A DNA stretch of 64,000 nt from Escherichia phage vB_EcoM-ZQ1: sequence record MW650886.1, one strand, 5' to 3'. Positions within the stretch are counted from its first letter, which is position 1. Each line of letters starts with the position of its first letter. A program made the position numbers and the translations under genes. Shown in pieces: positions 9,999-13,398 of this stretch. A model generated the notes under the pieces. It did not search any database, was not told where the DNA came from, and saw only the letters and a list, made by a program, of their open reading frames with translations.

Positions 9999-10145
9999 AT
10001 GTTTTACATGATGTTACTCCTCATCCTTCTGATCGGGATTACCTTTACTCTCCTGGGTCTACCCGATCAGTCCGGTAAACAGTCGCCCACTTCGGCGCAT
10101 CCGGTTTTGTGCGAAGGTTCGTCCGCACTGCTGTGGGCAGTGTAG
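9999..10145 (+). CDS. Small hydrophobic peptide (47 aa, one predicted TM helix)
   Basis: ATG preceded by SD GGAGGG at 7 nt; MFYMMLLLILLIGITFTLLGLP...; below the 60-aa cutoff of the ORF track. Confidence 0.3.
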   Translation: MFYMMLLLILLIGITFTLLGLPDQSGKQSPTSAHPVLCEGSSALLWAV

Positions 10146-11923
10146 CTCAAAGAGGAGAGGACTTTTCAAATTAGCTGGGCTGCAGTAAAGTATTAAGCGT
10201 GAGGCGAACAACGCATCGAGTTAGGCATCTAAAGCCGACCTCGCTAATCCCAGTCTCAGGGGCATGCGTGAATAGAGGCGTGATATCCACCTTGCATGGT
10301 GTCAGTGGACGCACTTGACCGTCGGAGAACGAAACTCCCTGTTGTAGCGTGATTAGCTCAGAATCAGAGAGCACCCTGTTGGCAAGTCGACACCAACATA
10401 TAAGGGGAGGTCGGGGGCGCTAATCTCCATCACGCCGGCAACATTATGAGTCTTCCACAGAGGGTTCATAATGTTGCGTCAAAGGGCAACAAGGTTCCTG
10501 TTGGTTGAATTAACTTGATTCATAGTTCCTACTGATCTTCCCGGATTCGAAGGAGCACCAACAGGCGAGGCCGGATGCGTAAGTTCCGGTAAATCGATGG
10601 TGATACCCTCGCCAACAAAAATAAAAGGTTTTATCAATAACGGGTTACAAAGTATAGTTAACCCACTGAAGCGAAAAGCTGTTTGGGCATTAGACAAACA
10701 CTTCGATGTGAACCCAGGACATGGCGTCTTGTGCTCAAACAGGTTTTCGTTTTCGTTGTGAGTGACTTTGCGGGTTTTTAGAAACTGACCAAGCAAATAA
10801 CTGCTAATGATTCCGAAGTTCTGATGGCGGCGTAACAGCCTATAAGTCAGTGAGGTCTTCCGATTCCTCATCACCAAATTCGGCGCACTAAAATAGACGG
10901 GAGGGTGTGATTAATAATCTCCCGTCGACAATGCCGTTATATCTGACTGTCCAAAGGGGATAAGCTCCTGAGTAAGCAGAGGTGGGTTGCCTAAGTCAGA
11001 TGGGATGTAAGGTCAGCGCTGGCCAAGCATTTGGGTTCGACTCCTAAAAACGGCTCCACATCTTTGAGGATATTCTCACGAGTATCTTGAAAGATGTGAG
11101 CGAAGTCTTGCCATCAGCCCTGATCCCTGGCAGGTGAAGGGCACACAAATCGAAGTGCCTTGACAATTTATCTTAAACCCAAAGGTTGATCTACAAATTG
11201 GACGGCCAATCCGGTGGACGATAACAGCATATTGGGCTATACTGTTGAGTCAGGGCACTTCGATTTGTGAACTTGAGAGAGCGTTGGGTGAAATAGACCA
11301 TGCCTTGCAGATTGCGATGCCTACACATTCCGGACACTGGTGGGCACCAAGAAGAACTCAGTAGCAGACGAGCCATCAGGGTTAGCTACCCGGCGCGGCG
11401 AGGACTGGGAGGCCGAACTAAGGGGAAACCCGAGACAGGCGTAGTATTCTCAAGTTCACAAAATGAAGAGCATTTAAAGAGTTCGATTCTCTTTCAGGCC
11501 ATTCGTGGTGTGATGTGAGTCATGAATGTTCTTCATCTTTGGGTGATTCTATGTTGCCGGGCTATCAACCCATGCTTGCTAGAGCAACCAGCCAGCCTCG
11601 TTTGGTCCGAGCGTTAGAGGACAAGTTGCTTCTACATGGAAGCTGCGAGTTGCGACATTGGTTGCAACTTTGATGGCTCTGGATTTTATAAACCATGTCT
11701 ATGGGTGACGCGGGATCTTTAGTACCAGAGCTATCAAAGTTGTGTCCAACCCGATCTTACAAGCCCGTATCCCGGTCTGGTTAAGACTTGTAAGTGGAAA
11801 GCCCTGGAAAAATAAACGCCTGTGGCGAGGCTATGGTGCAAGCCAAAGACCCACAGAAGCGCATGCCGTGAGGCAGCACAAACAGGCATGCATGAACTGA
11901 TCATGTACAAACGGGATAAAGGG

Positions 11924-11952
11924 TTGACAGTCCTTGGTTGGTACACAATAAT
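11924..11952 (+). promoter_or_regulatory. Possible sigma70-type promoter upstream of tRNA-Met (TTGACA ... AATAAT)
   Basis: Consensus -35 TTGACA at 11924..11929; AT-rich -10-like element follows, but spacing to the tRNA 5' end is tight. Confidence 0.25.
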
Positions 11953-11954
11953 TT

Positions 11955-12031
11955 GGTCCTGTAGCTCAGTCGGTTAGAGCAGTGAACTCATAATTCATTG
12001 GTAGTTGGTTCAAATCCAACCAGGATCACCA
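11955..12031 (+). tRNA. tRNA-Met (anticodon CAT; could also be Ile-lysidine type)
   Basis: Hand-folded cloverleaf: acceptor GGTCCTG/CAGGATC, D-stem GCTC/GAGC, anticodon loop CTCATAA, T-arm GTTGG-TTCAAAT-CCAAC, encoded CCA. Confidence 0.85.
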
Positions 12032-12283
12032 TATTAAGGGGTGTGAAACATGACACTCCGACAAACACAGTAAGCGTTGCAGCCAGCTGTGTATAAAATG
12101 GGATGACTCCACATCGGAAACGATGCCCCAACTTCCAGAAATGGTCGGGCGCAAAGCCTGTAAAGTTCCAGGAGATCGAACCAGAAGGCACTGGTCGCCA
12201 GTTAACCAATCGGCGCTGAGAAGCGCGGGGAGTTGGGCTACGGCAGATCAAATGCTCAATCGGGTGTGAAGCCCGTCCAAATT

Positions 12284-12372
12284 GGAAGGTTGCCCGAGAG
12301 GTTTAAGGGACTCGACTGCTAATCGAGTGGGGCTTTTAGCCCCCGAAGGTTCGAATCCTTCACCTTCCGCCA
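12284..12372 (+). tRNA. tRNA-Ser (anticodon GCT), type II with long variable arm
   Basis: Acceptor GGAAGGT/ACCTTCC, D-stem CCC/GGG, anticodon loop CTGCTAA, variable arm TGGGGCTTTTAGCCCCC, T-arm GAAGG-TTCGAAT-CCTTC, encoded CCA. Confidence 0.85.
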
Positions 12373-12588
12373 AATTACGGTCGTGACTTCCTGAAGAGTT
12401 AGAAGATGTGCATGTCGACTCTCTCGTAATCGGGTGTTTAGGAAGTTAAGAAAATCGCGGCGAGGATAGTGAAATGCAAATAGCTTTCTCTACGTCGACG
12501 ACTTCAGGTTCGACTCCTGACGCGCTCTCCCATAGGGTAGTACCAGTGCAAGCGTGTAGTCTTTCAACCCATCCCATCGATGTGGTGT

Positions 12589-12620
12589 AGCCGGATATCC
12601 TATCCGGCTTTCTTTTTATC
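12589..12620 (+). terminator. Intrinsic terminator downstream of the tRNA cluster
   Basis: Stem AGCCGGATA / TATCCGGCT with loop TCC followed by TTCTTTTTATC. Confidence 0.6.
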
Positions 12621-12741
12621 CCTGTCTTATTATCTTCTTATCGACCCAAGCATGTCCTCCTTTATCGTAGTTTGTTCAATGATACAAAGGGGGTTTAAAA
12701 TTTAACCGTTAACCCCCTATCATAGATTTGAGGATACACTA

Positions 12742-13398
12742 ATGCGTAATGTTTCTATCTGGGAATTGAACGAAGTGATTTCCCATGACACCCCTCCAAT
12801 TGTCAGACTCTTCCGATACAAGGGTGTCAAGCGCACTCTGAATGAGTTCCTGTCGCCTGTTTACGTCTACCGTGATGGCGGGTTCTTCTGCCGCGATAAA
12901 AACATCCCGAACCTTGGTATGACGTTTGATTTGAGTATCAAAGGCCAGGTTGTATTGATGGGTTATGGTAGCCTGGAACAATCTGAGAAAGGCCAGGGCG
13001 CTCCACTTATGGTCTTCGGTTCGTTTGAACAAGCCGTGCACTGGCTGATCAGAAACGGATATGATTTCTATGGCGAAGAAAGCGCCAATTGGCGTCGTCG
13101 CAAGGTCAAGTCTGTTGATCTGGTGGATTTGAATCTGATGTACCAGGCCATGGCTCGCGAGTACGAAAAGAATCTCGTCAAGCCTGTCGCTCAGGAGAAC
13201 AATGTTGTTAACGACGCAACTGAGTCTTCTCATCATGACGTGAACATCGTTCCAGCCTGTGAAACGAAAGCGCCGACACCACCTACTCCTCCGACCAGTC
13301 GTGTTCTGAATGATCAGGGCGCTCCGGTAAAACAAAAGGTCAAGAAGCCGACTTTCATGGAAAACATGATGAAGTTCCTTCGTCTGTTCAAGAAGTAA
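12742..13398 (+). CDS. Hypothetical protein
   Basis: 218-aa ORF with SD GAGGAT; the overlapping antisense ORF 12739..13335 is judged a shadow. Confidence 0.45.
   Translation: MRNVSIWELNEVISHDTPPIVRLFRYKGVKRTLNEFLSPVYVYRDGGFFCRDKNIPNLGMTFDLSIKGQVVLMGYGSLEQSEKGQGAPLMVFGSFEQAVHWLIRNGYDFYGEESANWRRRKVKSVDLVDLNLMYQAMAREYEKNLVKPVAQENNVVNDATESSHHDVNIVPACETKAPTPPTPPTSRVLNDQGAPVKQKVKKPTFMENMMKFLRLFKK

Follow-up and report, generated by a model that had tools for sequence, protein, structure and literature searches.

Beside the tRNA genes of Escherichia phage vB_EcoM-ZQ1 (MW650886.1), in the window of 64,000 nucleotides analysed here, lies what we read as a conserved plus-strand island of RNA genes (10146-12741) containing a tmRNA-derived RNA that is antisense to the tmRNA of the host and that would block or re-template its tagging, an interpretation in which we place somewhat better than even confidence. 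The island has been kept by Ackermannviridae next to their tRNA genes and holds separate structured RNA modules, namely two RNAs of tRNA shape, one of which has its CCA encoded, a decayed tRNA-like gene, long hairpins and an RNA of about 190 nt, which is the tmRNA-like element considered first below.

A tmRNA-derived element with its own promoter and tag frame

The promoter of the element (Table 1) has the same motif in 17/17 aligned Ackermannviridae sequences, its sole variable base being the third of the -35 sequence (TTATCA/TTGTCA). This motif also lies upstream of the KNP4 and Bue1 copies, and in Felix-like phages and Skatevirus TTGACA-17-TAAGAT, TATAGT or TAGATT is found immediately 5' of the element. 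The leader hairpin that precedes the element keeps its position between genera and is variable in sequence, the KNP4 equivalent being of 13 bp.

The element is structured. In its alignment 92.2% of cells are paired, compared with 30-48% in slid controls, and three helices, the pseudoknot included, are 99.5-100% paired with many double changes. Stem A (helix 4) is 100% paired and shows A-U/G-C covariation (22 vs 27 sequences), while in helices 6 and 7, which make up H2 and the pseudoknot, pairing is 99.6% and 99.5% and five pairs covary. The pseudoknot itself comes in three types (CCGA/UCGG, CCAG/CUGG and CCAA/UUGG), with a GUCG/CGAC version in KNP4, and the overall architecture is retained in KNP4 and Bue1, whose copies are divergent. 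Variants of the P1 stem (UUAUG/CAUAA) are compensatory, and the P1 loop contains UUUAGAAAC, which is invariant among the classes having such a loop. The 5' stem P0 (UUUUCGU/ACGAWGA, helix 1) is weakly supported beyond UCGU/ACGA, the window copy, folded as a single sequence, is only mildly more stable than its shuffles (z = -1.66), and the terminal hairpin, with a loop of 15 nt, is not followed by CCA.

AUAACU stands directly 5' of the tag frame, with which it spans 10797-10835. A frame of ten codons followed by a stop is present in 128/128 copies with a located resume motif, and in KNP4 and Bue1 as well. Its 27 DNA versions specify 14 peptides with the consensus AN(D/E)xxx(L/K)xxA; many of the differences are synonymous, and codons 1, 2 and 10 vary at the third position only. 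The alternative two frames across the tag are interrupted by stops in 25-28 of 30 versions.

Three Rfam models (tmRNA_permuted, beta_tmRNA and tmRNA) repeatedly match independent copies and align exactly on the resume region and tag, at 11-28 bits, which is below their gathering scores of 47-84; no Rfam family except the tmRNA models matched the element. At a relaxed threshold ARAGORN calls a permuted tmRNA and reads the same tags, and local alignment puts P1 on PK1 of tmRNA. At the level of sequence, the element can be identified as a derivative of the mRNA-like half of tmRNA. The initial annotation overlooked the frame; the tmRNA search that it proposed was productive in uncovering the derivative at 10743-10931, although standard tools fail to do so at default settings.

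Table 1. Features of the RNA-gene island and the evidence for each
Feature	Position	Strand	Description and evidence
tRNA-like RNA (M2)	10347-10436	+	7-bp acceptor-like stem GCGUGAU/AUCACGC; D-arm-like hairpin
tRNA-like gene remnant	10596-10616	+	Kuttervirus 51-nt segment missing after 10602 (indel map)
Sigma-70-type promoter TTATCA-16-TATAGT	10631-10658	+	Promoter scan; predicted start near 10665
Leader hairpin GUUUGGGC/GCUCAAAC	10681-10740	+	Compensatory pairs 10688/10733, 10689/10732
tmRNA-like element, ~190 nt	10743-10931	+	Own conserved sigma-70-type promoter
Predicted 5' antisense segment	10749-10773	+	Against host tmRNA nt 74-104 (RNAduplex, shuffles, cofold)
P1 hairpin upstream of resume codon, at tmRNA PK1 position	10766-10797	+	Helix 3, 90.6% paired
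tmRNA-type tag frame, ANDSEVLMAA and stop	10803-10835	+	GCU AAU GAU UCC GAA GUU CUG AUG GCG GCG UAA
Stem A and inner hairpin, stop codon in loop	10821-10850	+	Counterpart of tmRNA helix 5
Hairpin H2 (UGAGG/CCUCA)	10851-10883	+	Loop CCGA and downstream UCGG form H-type pseudoknot
Terminal hairpin	10896-10926	+	Covarying stem, conserved loop GGUGUGAUUAAUAAU
tRNA-like RNA (M5), 127 nt	10933-11058	+	Acceptor GCCGUU/AACGGC, two long arms (consensus fold)
Conserved hairpin	11057-11098	+	Four compensatory pairs
Domain closed by 19-bp long-range helix	11145-11268	+	4-5 compensatory pairs; z = -8.0 (alignment scan)
Multi-branched structured block	11302-11455	+	Nine compensatory pairs
Long hairpin, 19-bp stem	11658-11750	+	Five compensatory pairs, no unpaired cells; z = -11
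tRNA-Met (CAT)	11955-12031	+	
tRNA-Ser (GCT)	12284-12372	+	
Strong intrinsic terminator closing the island	12589-12619	+	

Distribution of the element

Across at least six lineages, 691 phage records contain the element without annotating it; of 5426 complete E. coli genomes, 135 have it, between Q and the holin. Its carriers are HK620 and other E. coli lambdoid prophages (including those of 5.5-5.8 Mb E. coli genomes), Felix O1-like phages, Ackermannviridae, N4-like G7C relatives, Webervirus and Skatevirus. In the lambdoid prophages it is embedded in the late mRNA leader. True copies among species-representative genomes are confined to Enterobacterales, a host range that agrees with a tmRNA-directed reading. 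Contigs labelled Flammeovirgaceae and Eubacterium, which account for two of the seven genome matches, lack the element and are probably chance pattern matches. A prophage small RNA reported in 2026, svsR, maps to the 3' end of cI; it is a different RNA from the element.

Complementarity to host tmRNA

Computed pairings identify the 5' end of the element as antisense to host tmRNA. E. coli tmRNA (ssrA) was the target throughout, and pairing was assessed both with local RNAduplex and by full-length cofolding. The complementarity involves the first ~26 nt of the element and nucleotides ~70-106 of host tmRNA, a stretch that takes in the PK1 3' strand together with the resume codon and codons 2-5; the window copy pairs through GUUUUCGUUGU/ACGACGAAAAC, GUGACU/AGUCGC and UUGCGG/CCGCAA. 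For each of the 57 distinct 5' ends, pairing with E. coli tmRNA 66-125 is stronger than pairing with the equivalent region of the element itself, the mean duplex energies being -25.3 and -12.5 kcal/mol, respectively. Each of nine sequence classes gives a duplex of 22-25 bp on tmRNA 70-106. The 5' GUUUUCGU(C) of the element is invariant, and each of the five different middle segments finds its complement in AAAAAAUAGUCGC, counting G-U as well as Watson-Crick pairs.

Of 300 dinucleotide shuffles per class, 0-1 were as favourable as the observed pairing in three classes and 3-5 in two more, that of the window included, whereas the controls were not significant for the Felix-like and KNP4 classes; complementarity is conserved across divergent copies and lies above chance in five of the seven classes tested. 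Full-length cofolding picks the same tmRNA site, except that with a Felix-like copy the antisense site was not selected. P1 and tmRNA PK1 have homologous 5' strands, and in tmRNA the natural partner is CCGC; because of this common descent part of the complementarity to host tmRNA is to be expected. In two classes, moreover, the middle segment pairs almost equally well with the upstream region of the element itself. Complementarity to tmRNA does not reach significance for the conserved terminal loop, for the GGCGCACU motif or for the UUUUUAGAAAC loop.

A tag frame for which no tRNA-like domain was found

ARAGORN, at its default setting and at ps95, finds no tRNA-like domain in 132 element contexts, and the Rfam tmRNA models match the tag region only, with no acceptor stem, T-arm or CCA found. 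When the element is aligned to RF04321 the pairs of the tRNA domain are mismatched, and no permuted-type acceptor piece was found upstream. One pseudoknot downstream of the frame is strongly supported, the PK1 position is taken by the simple P1 hairpin, and PK3 and PK4 are absent. In a search for a closing or acceptor-like helix, the flanks of the lambdoid copies (GGUAAGAGCAUU ... AGUGCUCUUUCC) proved to be repeated tRNA-like units that could pair across the element or within themselves, an ambiguous outcome. No flank of this type surrounds the Felix-like copies, where the element lies between tRNA-Ile and tRNA-Arg and the promoter should start transcription just before GUUUUCGU.

Since no tRNA-like domain was found, the element should be unable to be charged or to enter the ribosome alone. 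Selection at the level of the peptide, on the other hand, implies that the frame is translated, for which a tRNA-like domain is needed. The domain of the host may be borrowed for translation of the phage tag frame; alternatively, an acceptor piece may have gone unrecognised, the candidates being M5 and a 67-nt mini-tRNA of Kuttervirus.

Possible modes of action

What we infer from these sequences is a mechanism in which the RNA binds host tmRNA to block or re-template tagging. It would be made early in infection from its host-type promoter and would anneal in trans to host tmRNA via its 5' end, thereby masking the host tag template. The outcome would be either that tagging is inhibited or that the phage tag frame is offered in place of the host frame, in which case SmpB and the tRNA-like domain of the host would add a tag specified by the phage, with MAA or AVA at its end and not LAA. 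As to the other modules of the island, tRNA-processing enzymes probably release them as stable RNAs from the same transcripts.

The more specific proposal that the element is a parasitic tag template, its resume codon and frame replacing those of the host on alanine-charged tmRNA with SmpB, is one that we put forward tentatively. The tags would then be AANDSEVLMAA, AANDNTFLAVA and others, with AANDDVVLMAA for copies like that of HK620. If so, host and phage would together form a hybrid two-piece tmRNA, assembled in trans, and phages of at least six lineages would re-programme what becomes of rescued proteins, for instance by keeping them away from ClpXP or by lightening its load.

Alternatively, the element might be the coding piece of a complete two-piece tmRNA of the phage, with its acceptor piece nearby, which would carry out trans-translation of its own with host SmpB. 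Candidates for that piece are M5 (10933-11058), the upstream Kuttervirus mini-tRNA and the tRNA-like flanking repeats of the lambdoids. The peptide-level selection on the tag frame would be accounted for, as would the label 'permuted' that ARAGORN applies at relaxed settings; tRNA-shaped units do adjoin the element in Ackermannviridae and lambdoids, one of them with a conserved CCA end, and the Kuttervirus mini-tRNA resembles the tRNA-like domain of tmRNA in having no anticodon arm. However, the alanine identity pair G3-U70 is absent (M5 has C3-G70, M2 has G3-C70 and the mini-tRNA has U3-G70), and ARAGORN at ps85-90 positions the tRNA domain inconsistently between copies. The mini-tRNA closes on itself, and in the window it is broken by a 51-nt deletion, yet the element is still intact. 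M5 is confined to Ackermannviridae, and in other genera insertions of 97-422 nt set it off from the element, while the Felix-like copies, between promoter and true tRNA, leave no room for an acceptor piece. We consider a self-sufficient two-piece tmRNA unlikely.

It is more doubtful again that the element is a decoy or relic, that is, a tmRNA fragment that titrates S1, RNase R and perhaps SmpB, or that stabilises or processes transcripts, with neither pairing nor translation. The element does resemble the mRNA-like domain and pseudoknot region of tmRNA, the region to which ribosomal protein S1 binds; the phage form that consists of the tRNA-like domain only (DS6A) is thought to titrate SmpB, and tRNA arrays and a late mRNA leader are places where processing signals would be useful. 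Such a role would nevertheless leave the fixed ten-codon frame and its third-position-only variation unexplained, along with the observation that the invariant GUUUUCGU(C) and five middle segments are complementary to one site on host tmRNA and not to the element itself.

A modular, non-coding RNA locus

The region around the element is non-coding and under purifying selection. Long ORFs densely fill the remainder of the 64-kb window, whereas the longest within 10146-11954, as the initial annotation had remarked, is of 132 aa (10479-10877, minus strand) and the others are of at most 72 aa; the ORF-poor stretch extends past the end given there, to 12741, and the first convincing gene starts from 12742. 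ORFs inside the region have zero matches to Pfam and PHROGs, and identity by codon position in the 132-aa ORF (0.84/0.87/0.855) is without codon periodicity. Compared with Kuttervirus the region is ~83% identical overall, with blocks of 92-96%, and identity within the stretch is 83-96% across Ackermannviridae genera. Between genera the flanking genes agree at 46-66% of third codon positions, which is near saturation, and identity in the region far exceeds that of synonymous sites in its neighbours. Folding energies differ between the strands, consensus folds being more stable on the plus strand, with many helices that show compensatory changes, among which are G-U pairs possible only in plus-strand RNA. 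The comparison of related phages that had been suggested reveals compensatory change and no codon periodicity. Conservation and structure are what would be expected of RNA genes beside a phage tRNA cluster.

Genera differ by indels of whole modules (47, 51, 97, 173 and 190-424 nt) between conserved blocks; a conserved promoter lies inside the locus, and the element stands alone, without the other modules, in unrelated phages. For these reasons the locus is regarded not as one molecule but as a series of modules, made up of tRNA-like RNAs, long hairpins and a decayed tRNA. Module ends, both 5' and 3', were inferred from promoters and neighbouring tRNAs. M2 has an extended arm at the anticodon position and a hairpin at the T position, with no anticodon loop and no encoded CCA; in the consensus fold it has compensatory pairs at 10348/10434, 10374/10407, 10379/10396 and 10380/10395, and parts of it are kept in Bue1 and KNP4. 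The 3' part of M5 comprises a T-arm (UUGGG-UUCGACU-CCUAA), then U, then the encoded CCA, and both CCA and T-arm are conserved in 16/17 aligned Ackermannviridae sequences. Part of M5 is called by ARAGORN at ps80. In neither M2 nor M5 is there an anticodon loop, acceptor and T-position helices are present and partly covarying, and the tRNA model RF00005 does not match either of them even at E <= 10. The record of SeKF_19 annotates the intact counterpart of the remnant at 10596-10616 as a 67-nt tRNA-Ala, and by our reading the intact Kuttervirus unit would have acceptor, D and T arms without an anticodon arm. Further downstream, the wider block 11548-11950 is conserved in Limestonevirus.

At gathering thresholds Rfam, like ARAGORN (at default settings and with introns), reports two tRNAs only. 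Matches to microRNA precursors in the Rfam E-value scan are spurious and stem from the long hairpin at 11658-11750; together with those to snoRNAs and plastid UTRs they are artefacts of that hairpin and of reverse-strand tRNAs. A promoter-like site at 11215-43 was dropped as it is not conserved. Between tRNA-Met and tRNA-Ser three tRNAs of a close relative are deleted, and some relatives have HNH endonuclease genes inserted at this locus. Several GenBank records annotate hypothetical proteins here, with position and strand varying by record.

Several features that had been noticed by eye were recovered. Both tRNA genes lie downstream on the same strand, the tRNA-like fragments correspond to the two units and the remnant in Table 1, and the long-range inverted repeats are 11145-63/11250-68 and 11665-82/11725-42, with compensatory substitutions in both. 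The proposal of a large non-coding RNA locus holds in that the region is non-coding, structured, selected and on the strand of the tRNAs, and fails as regards a single large ornate RNA. That the whole 1.8 kb is one such molecule, of the GOLLD or ROOL kind, is very improbable: the entire stretch is indeed conserved, structure-rich and adjacent to tRNAs, but no Rfam family is matched even at E <= 10, blocks are gained, lost and respaced between genera, a conserved promoter lies inside and one block occurs alone in unrelated phages, and in the consensus fold all supported helices are local (within ~125 nt), none bridging the whole region. The recommended scan for large ornate RNAs (GOLLD, ROOL) and group I/II introns likewise returned no match to these covariance models, at gathering or at E-value thresholds.

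Still less probable is that the region is a graveyard of decayed tRNAs, neutral DNA or a set of signals acting at the DNA level (a promoter array, replication origin or recombination linker). The broken tRNA-like gene, the tRNAs deleted between tRNA-Met and tRNA-Ser and the HNH endonuclease insertions would be in keeping with decay, but the region is conserved far above the synonymous sites of neighbouring genes, and its frequent compensatory changes, including G-U pairs specific to the plus strand, and strand-asymmetric folding energies speak against it. Small proteins, such as that of the 132-aa minus-strand ORF, have a negligible claim, since the hypothetical proteins annotated in GenBank differ in position and strand between records, codon periodicity and Pfam or PHROG matches are absent, and the indels are not multiples of three.

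Comparison with known systems

A more general lesson is that seemingly 'empty' DNA beside phage tRNA genes can contain conserved RNA genes, into which annotation pipelines put spurious small ORFs. GOLLD and ROOL are likewise phage-borne, near tRNAs and structure-rich, but neither matches at any threshold and the present locus is modular, with short units. By location, the locus recalls the stable RNAs species 1 and 2 (RNA C and D) of phage T4, which are non-tRNA species found inside the tRNA array and processed with the tRNAs, and in which no tmRNA-like frame is known; the likeness to these RNAs of a phage tRNA cluster is one of description. AgvB and AsxR are small RNAs of lambdoid prophages; their genes lie in the late 'moron' region, downstream of pR', and they act by pairing with a non-coding RNA of the host. 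They are, however, only 51-60 nt long, Hfq-dependent, mimic the mRNA targets of GcvB and FnrS and are unrelated in sequence to the element, so that size and sequence set them apart from it despite the shared lambdoid late-region location.

The closest relative is tmRNA itself (SsrA; RF00023). The likeness extends from the resume codon GCA after an A-rich AUAAAU to a ten-codon tag, AN(D/E)...AA in the element, that resembles the enterobacterial ANDENYALAA, a stop codon in a hairpin loop (helix 5) followed by a pseudoknot, and a hairpin at the PK1 position; the element aligns locally to nt 54-122 of E. coli tmRNA. It differs in being without acceptor stem, T-arm with T-loop, CCA and G3-U70, in having one pseudoknot in place of four and ~190 nt in place of 363, and in its 5' end, which is predicted to be antisense to host tmRNA. 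Two-piece tmRNAs of alpha- and beta-proteobacteria and cyanobacteria (RF04321, RF01850), which provide the best sub-threshold Rfam matches of the element, also have a tag template that is physically apart from the chargeable part, the pieces being joined by base pairing only. There, however, both come from one gene of the same genome, whereas no partner piece of the element was found and its only strong complementarity is to the one-piece tmRNA of the host.

Some phages have long been known to depend on ssrA. If the element does act on host tmRNA, it would be the first known phage RNA to target ribosome rescue by base pairing and a natural case of a tag template supplied in trans. This would bear on the ssrA dependence of phages, on engineered tagging systems and on the design of strains for phage therapy, as many therapeutic Ackermannviridae and Felix-like phages carry the element. 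Cataloguing of tmRNA has been exhaustive, and in the surveys consulted here the phages with a tmRNA are mycobacteriophages and one Bacillus phage only, the sole reduced form listed being a tRNA-like half. That form, in mycobacteriophage DS6A, is comparable to the element as a truncated half borne by a phage and thought to interfere with host trans-translation, but it has the tRNA-like domain without a tag frame, whereas the element has the tag frame without a tRNA-like domain. This opposite half, which standard tools miss, is now found unannotated in hundreds of well-studied enterobacterial phages.

Coding content and conservation

The window derives from an Ackermannviridae myovirus. Escherichia phage vB_EcoM-RPN242 is the nearest database record (96.8% identity over window 10000-12750), followed by Agtrevirus-like phages and then by Kuttervirus and Taipeivirus (~80-87%). 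The initial annotation had described 10146-11954 as ORF-poor and as a candidate large non-coding RNA locus. The first point is confirmed, since the longest ORF there encodes 132 aa (10479..10877, minus strand) and the remainder ≤72 aa, with long, tightly packed ORFs elsewhere in the window; the gene-free stretch in fact extends to 12741. ORFs inside the region have no Pfam or PHROGs matches, and GenBank records of relatives show differing small 'hypothetical proteins' here, of varying strand and position, or no annotation at all. Several records lay such CDSs over the tmRNA-like element described below (window 10732-10811), on either strand (e.g., Bas81_0063, cecavS50_165); these are probably annotation artefacts.

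In an alignment of 17 Ackermannviridae, identity to Kuttervirus is 0.83 overall and 0.92-0.96 in four blocks (10317-10660, 10867-11060, 11417-66 and 11567-11816), as against 0.46-0.66 at third codon positions of the flanking protein genes in the same comparisons. Genera differ in length by entire blocks (47, 51, 97, 173 and 190-424 nt), most of which are not divisible by three, and in most 120-nt windows the consensus folding energy is more negative on the plus than on the minus strand. Compensatory substitutions are present, and the 132-aa ORF is without a coding signature because its identities at codon positions 1/2/3 are 0.84/0.87/0.855. The region is more than decayed spacer.

The preceding 48-aa ORF (9999-10145, plus strand) matches PHROG 8415 (unknown function) and is a 'hypothetical protein' in relatives. 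It is ~95% identical to Kuttervirus at the nucleotide level with no third-position excess (0.96/0.96/0.94), the adjoining upstream gene being ~70% identical, and a hairpin with four compensatory pairs lies at its end (10128-10140). It may be part of the non-coding island rather than a gene.

A modular island of RNA genes

A single large RNA is unsupported. Searching the region against Rfam matched no family at curated level beyond the two tRNAs, the supported helices are without exception local, modules are re-spaced, gained or lost from genus to genus, and a promoter lies within the region. The same promoter precedes the element in two distant genera that otherwise have little sequence in common with the window at this locus, Miltonvirus (KNP4) and Nezavisimistyvirus (Bue1). 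This favours many RNAs rather than one: RNA genes are arranged here as a modular island, whose best-defined member is a tmRNA derivative that is widespread and had not been annotated before. The tRNA-like fragments and long-range inverted repeats noted at the outset are real (see table).

Features of the gene-free stretch (window coordinates)
Feature	Position	Strand	Remarks
tRNA-like unit M2	10347-10436		Cloverleaf-like; 7-bp acceptor-like stem; consensus structure with compensatory substitutions
tRNA-like remnant	10596-10616		Leftover of unit annotated in Salmonella phage SeKF_19 as 67-nt tRNA-Ala; 51-nt segment lost here, retained in Kuttervirus
Promoter, sigma-70-type	10631-10658		TT(A/G)TCAATAA-N-GTATAGTTA; in 17/17 aligned genomes; one variable base, in -35 hexamer
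tmRNA-like element	10743-10931	+	~190 nt
Segments predicted to pair with host tmRNA	10749-59, 10762-67, 10768-73
Tag frame	10803-10835		ANDSEVLMAA
tRNA-like unit M5	10933-11058		3' end: T-arm, acceptor strand, conserved encoded CCA
Hairpin	11057-98		Consensus structure with compensatory substitutions
Long-range helix	11145-63/11250-68		19 bp; compensatory substitutions
Branched block	11302-11455		Consensus structure with compensatory substitutions
Hairpin	11665-82/11725-42		19 bp; compensatory substitutions
tRNA-Met	11955-12031	+
tRNA-Ser	12284-12372	+
Intrinsic terminator	12589-12619		Strong; end of stretch

The SeKF_19 'tRNA-Ala' (L004 2104-2170) has acceptor, D and T arms and, by our reading, no anticodon arm, the shape of the tRNA-like domain (TLD) of tmRNA. 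It carries U3-G70, not G3-U70, and is separated by ~110 nt from the tmRNA-like element downstream; in the window this unit is broken. At 11924-11952 a promoter-like site close to consensus (TTGACA-17-AATAAT) abuts tRNA-Met so closely that its predicted start falls inside the tRNA. Exactly at this site Kuttervirus and Taipeivirus have 111-424 nt inserted, comprising further structured elements (e.g., GGGGCGAUAG...GACCCCGCCA); one genome also has an insert that looks coding. At 12032-12283 the tRNA-Trp, tRNA-Asn and tRNA-Tyr of Salmonella phage vB_CECAV_050 are absent, 418 nt being replaced by 22 nt after tRNA-Met, and 12062-12283 is unusually conserved (98.5% identity to Kuttervirus SJ3; 97% islands in Limestonevirus). 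A further tRNA-like remnant follows tRNA-Ser at 12383-12582 (GGTTCGACTCCTGACGCGCTCTCCCA near 12508-12533; ARAGORN ps80 call at 12459-12527); the SeKF_19 record annotates a 'tRNA-OTHER' directly behind tRNA-Ser.

Structure and distribution of the tmRNA-like element

An alignment of 49 non-redundant copies supports hairpin P1 at the 5' end; stem A, with a small hairpin inside it; hairpin H2, which forms a pseudoknot through pairing of its loop with a tetramer further downstream; and a terminal hairpin whose loop GGUGUGAUUAAUAAU is conserved and whose stem covaries freely. Pairing in each of stem A, H2 and the pseudoknot is 99.5-100%, and double-sided changes number 22, 45 and 16, respectively. 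Overall, 92.2% of alignment cells are paired and the covariation score is 0.244, versus 30-48% and 0.04-0.11 with slid partners. The resulting covariance model finds one copy in the window (10733-10931, 147.6 bits) and divergent copies of the same architecture and different sequence in KNP4 (79.8 bits) and Bue1 (68 bits). Limestonevirus gives no hit with the model, although this genus (Dickeya phage Ds5CZ, L011) keeps the promoter block (window 10604-10703) and block 11548-11950.

When the 1.8 kb was compared by BLAST with 50,697 phage records, window 10749-10918 also matched unannotated DNA of unrelated ~47 kb siphoviruses, upstream of tRNA genes and on their strand. An exact-pattern scan of IMG/VR gives at least 120 loci, and the copy in P22-like HK620, used as BLAST query, matches 691 phage records, among them Ackermannviridae, Felix O1-like Ounavirinae, N4-like Gamaleyavirus, Webervirus, Skatevirus-like phages, HK620 and others; the matched stretch is almost never annotated. 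In Felix-like phages the element is slotted into the tRNA array between tRNA-Ile and tRNA-Arg. It is present in 135 of 5426 complete E. coli genomes, always chromosomally, where it fills a stretch of lambdoid prophages that is free of annotation and separates the Q antiterminator from the lambda-family holin, and true copies in species-representative bacterial genomes are confined to Enterobacterales.

In lambdoid late leaders (L135, L028, L066, L070 and others) the element is flanked by repeats ACAGGUAAGAGCAUUG ... CAGUGCUCUUUCC(GUUGUG), some with a T-arm-like GGGUUCGAAUCCC in between, which allow either tRNA-like hairpins or pairing across the element; ARAGORN calls no tRNA in them. A single long hairpin of this kind is present in phage lambda itself, immediately behind tR'. 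In Rosenbergiella and Erwinia prophages (L144, L146) the element begins 4-5 nt past an intrinsic terminator resembling tR', so that only late transcription that is antiterminated would produce it.

Descent from tmRNA

A conserved single-stranded stretch reads AUAAAU and then GCA AAC GAU ... stop, encoding AN(D/E)xxx(L/K)xxA*, the pattern of enterobacterial tmRNA tags (ANDENYALAA in E. coli). In all 128 copies with a located resume motif the frame runs for precisely ten codons up to a stop (14 peptides, 27 DNA versions), and the divergent copies specify ANDNAYLMVA (KNP4) and ANDNEFKVAA (Bue1). Codons 1, 2 and 10 vary at third positions only, Leu7 varies between CUG and UUG, and stops interrupt the two alternative frames in 25-28 of the 30 versions. 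The Rfam tmRNA_permuted model gives a weak 22.3-bit match that recurs in independent copies, reaching 27.9 bits in one (L006; E = 0.00066, 461-nt search); beta_tmRNA and tmRNA models also match copies, and all these alignments fall exactly on the resume region and tag. Of the checks proposed initially, the one for tmRNA was the right one. ARAGORN calls nothing for the element at default or ps95 settings, and at ps85-90 reports 'permuted tmRNA' with the same tags in 43/132 contexts, placing the tRNA domain inconsistently. By local alignment the element corresponds to nt 54-122 of E. coli tmRNA, and P1 to the second stem of pseudoknot PK1. Because of the tag frame, Rfam matches, ARAGORN tags and local alignment, the element is a descendant of the mRNA-like half of tmRNA.

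Neither ARAGORN at default or ps95 settings nor the Rfam models detect an acceptor stem, T-loop or CCA in the element. Felix-like phages have a consensus promoter (TTGACA-17-TAAGAT or TATAGT) immediately after the preceding tRNA, with its predicted start a few bases 5' of the conserved GUUUUCGU, and the element is followed by the next tRNA, leaving no room for an acceptor piece; Skatevirus-like phages share this promoter arrangement. M2, M5 and the Kuttervirus mini-tRNA lack G3-U70, lie at no fixed distance from the element and are absent outside Ackermannviridae.

Complementarity to host tmRNA

Beginning at an invariant 5' end, the element's first ~26 nt form an interrupted antisense to nt ~70-106 of E. 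coli tmRNA (ssrA): (A)GUUUUCGU(C) pairs with (G)ACGAAAACU at host tag codons 3-5, GCGACU with AGUCGC at positions -4 to +2 around the host resume codon, and UUGCGG with CCGCAA in the 3' strand of host PK1. Some cross-complementarity is due to common descent, P1 being homologous to PK1, and two classes have a middle segment for which the upstream region of the element itself is an almost equally good partner. For each of the 57 distinct 5' ends, pairing is stronger with the host region (mean -25.3 kcal/mol) than with the equivalent region of the element (mean -12.5). Nine sequence classes form 22-25 bp duplexes at the same tmRNA site, and the five versions of the middle segment (GCGACU, GCGAUUAU, GCGUCUAUUUU, GCGAUUGUUUUU and GCGGCUGUUUUU) are each complementary to AAAAAAUAGUCGC through Watson-Crick or G-U pairs. 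When either partner is dinucleotide-shuffled, the observed energy is reached in 0-1/300 trials for HK620, major lambdoid and IME11 types, 3-5/300 for window and Skatevirus types, and 23-37/300 for Felix-like and KNP4 types. Full-length cofolding places the copies from the window, HK620 and Skatevirus on this site (gain 11-19 kcal/mol) and does not do so for the Felix-like copy. For the remaining conserved loops of the element, complementarity to tmRNA is not significant.

The GUUUUCGUC block has no partner within the element, which would escape its own antisense because its codons 3-5 differ from the host's. Our preferred reading is a trans-acting RNA that would anneal to host tmRNA. The annealed element might simply block the host tag template; alternatively, it might substitute its own frame, so that the host TLD would deliver a phage-specified tag ending MAA or AVA, not LAA. 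Peptide-level conservation favours frame substitution over simple blocking.

No description of the element was found in the searchable literature. Surveys by the tmRNA-database curators give phage tmRNAs only for mycobacteriophages and Bacillus phage G, and the sole reduced phage form they give is the TLD-only DS6A RNA.
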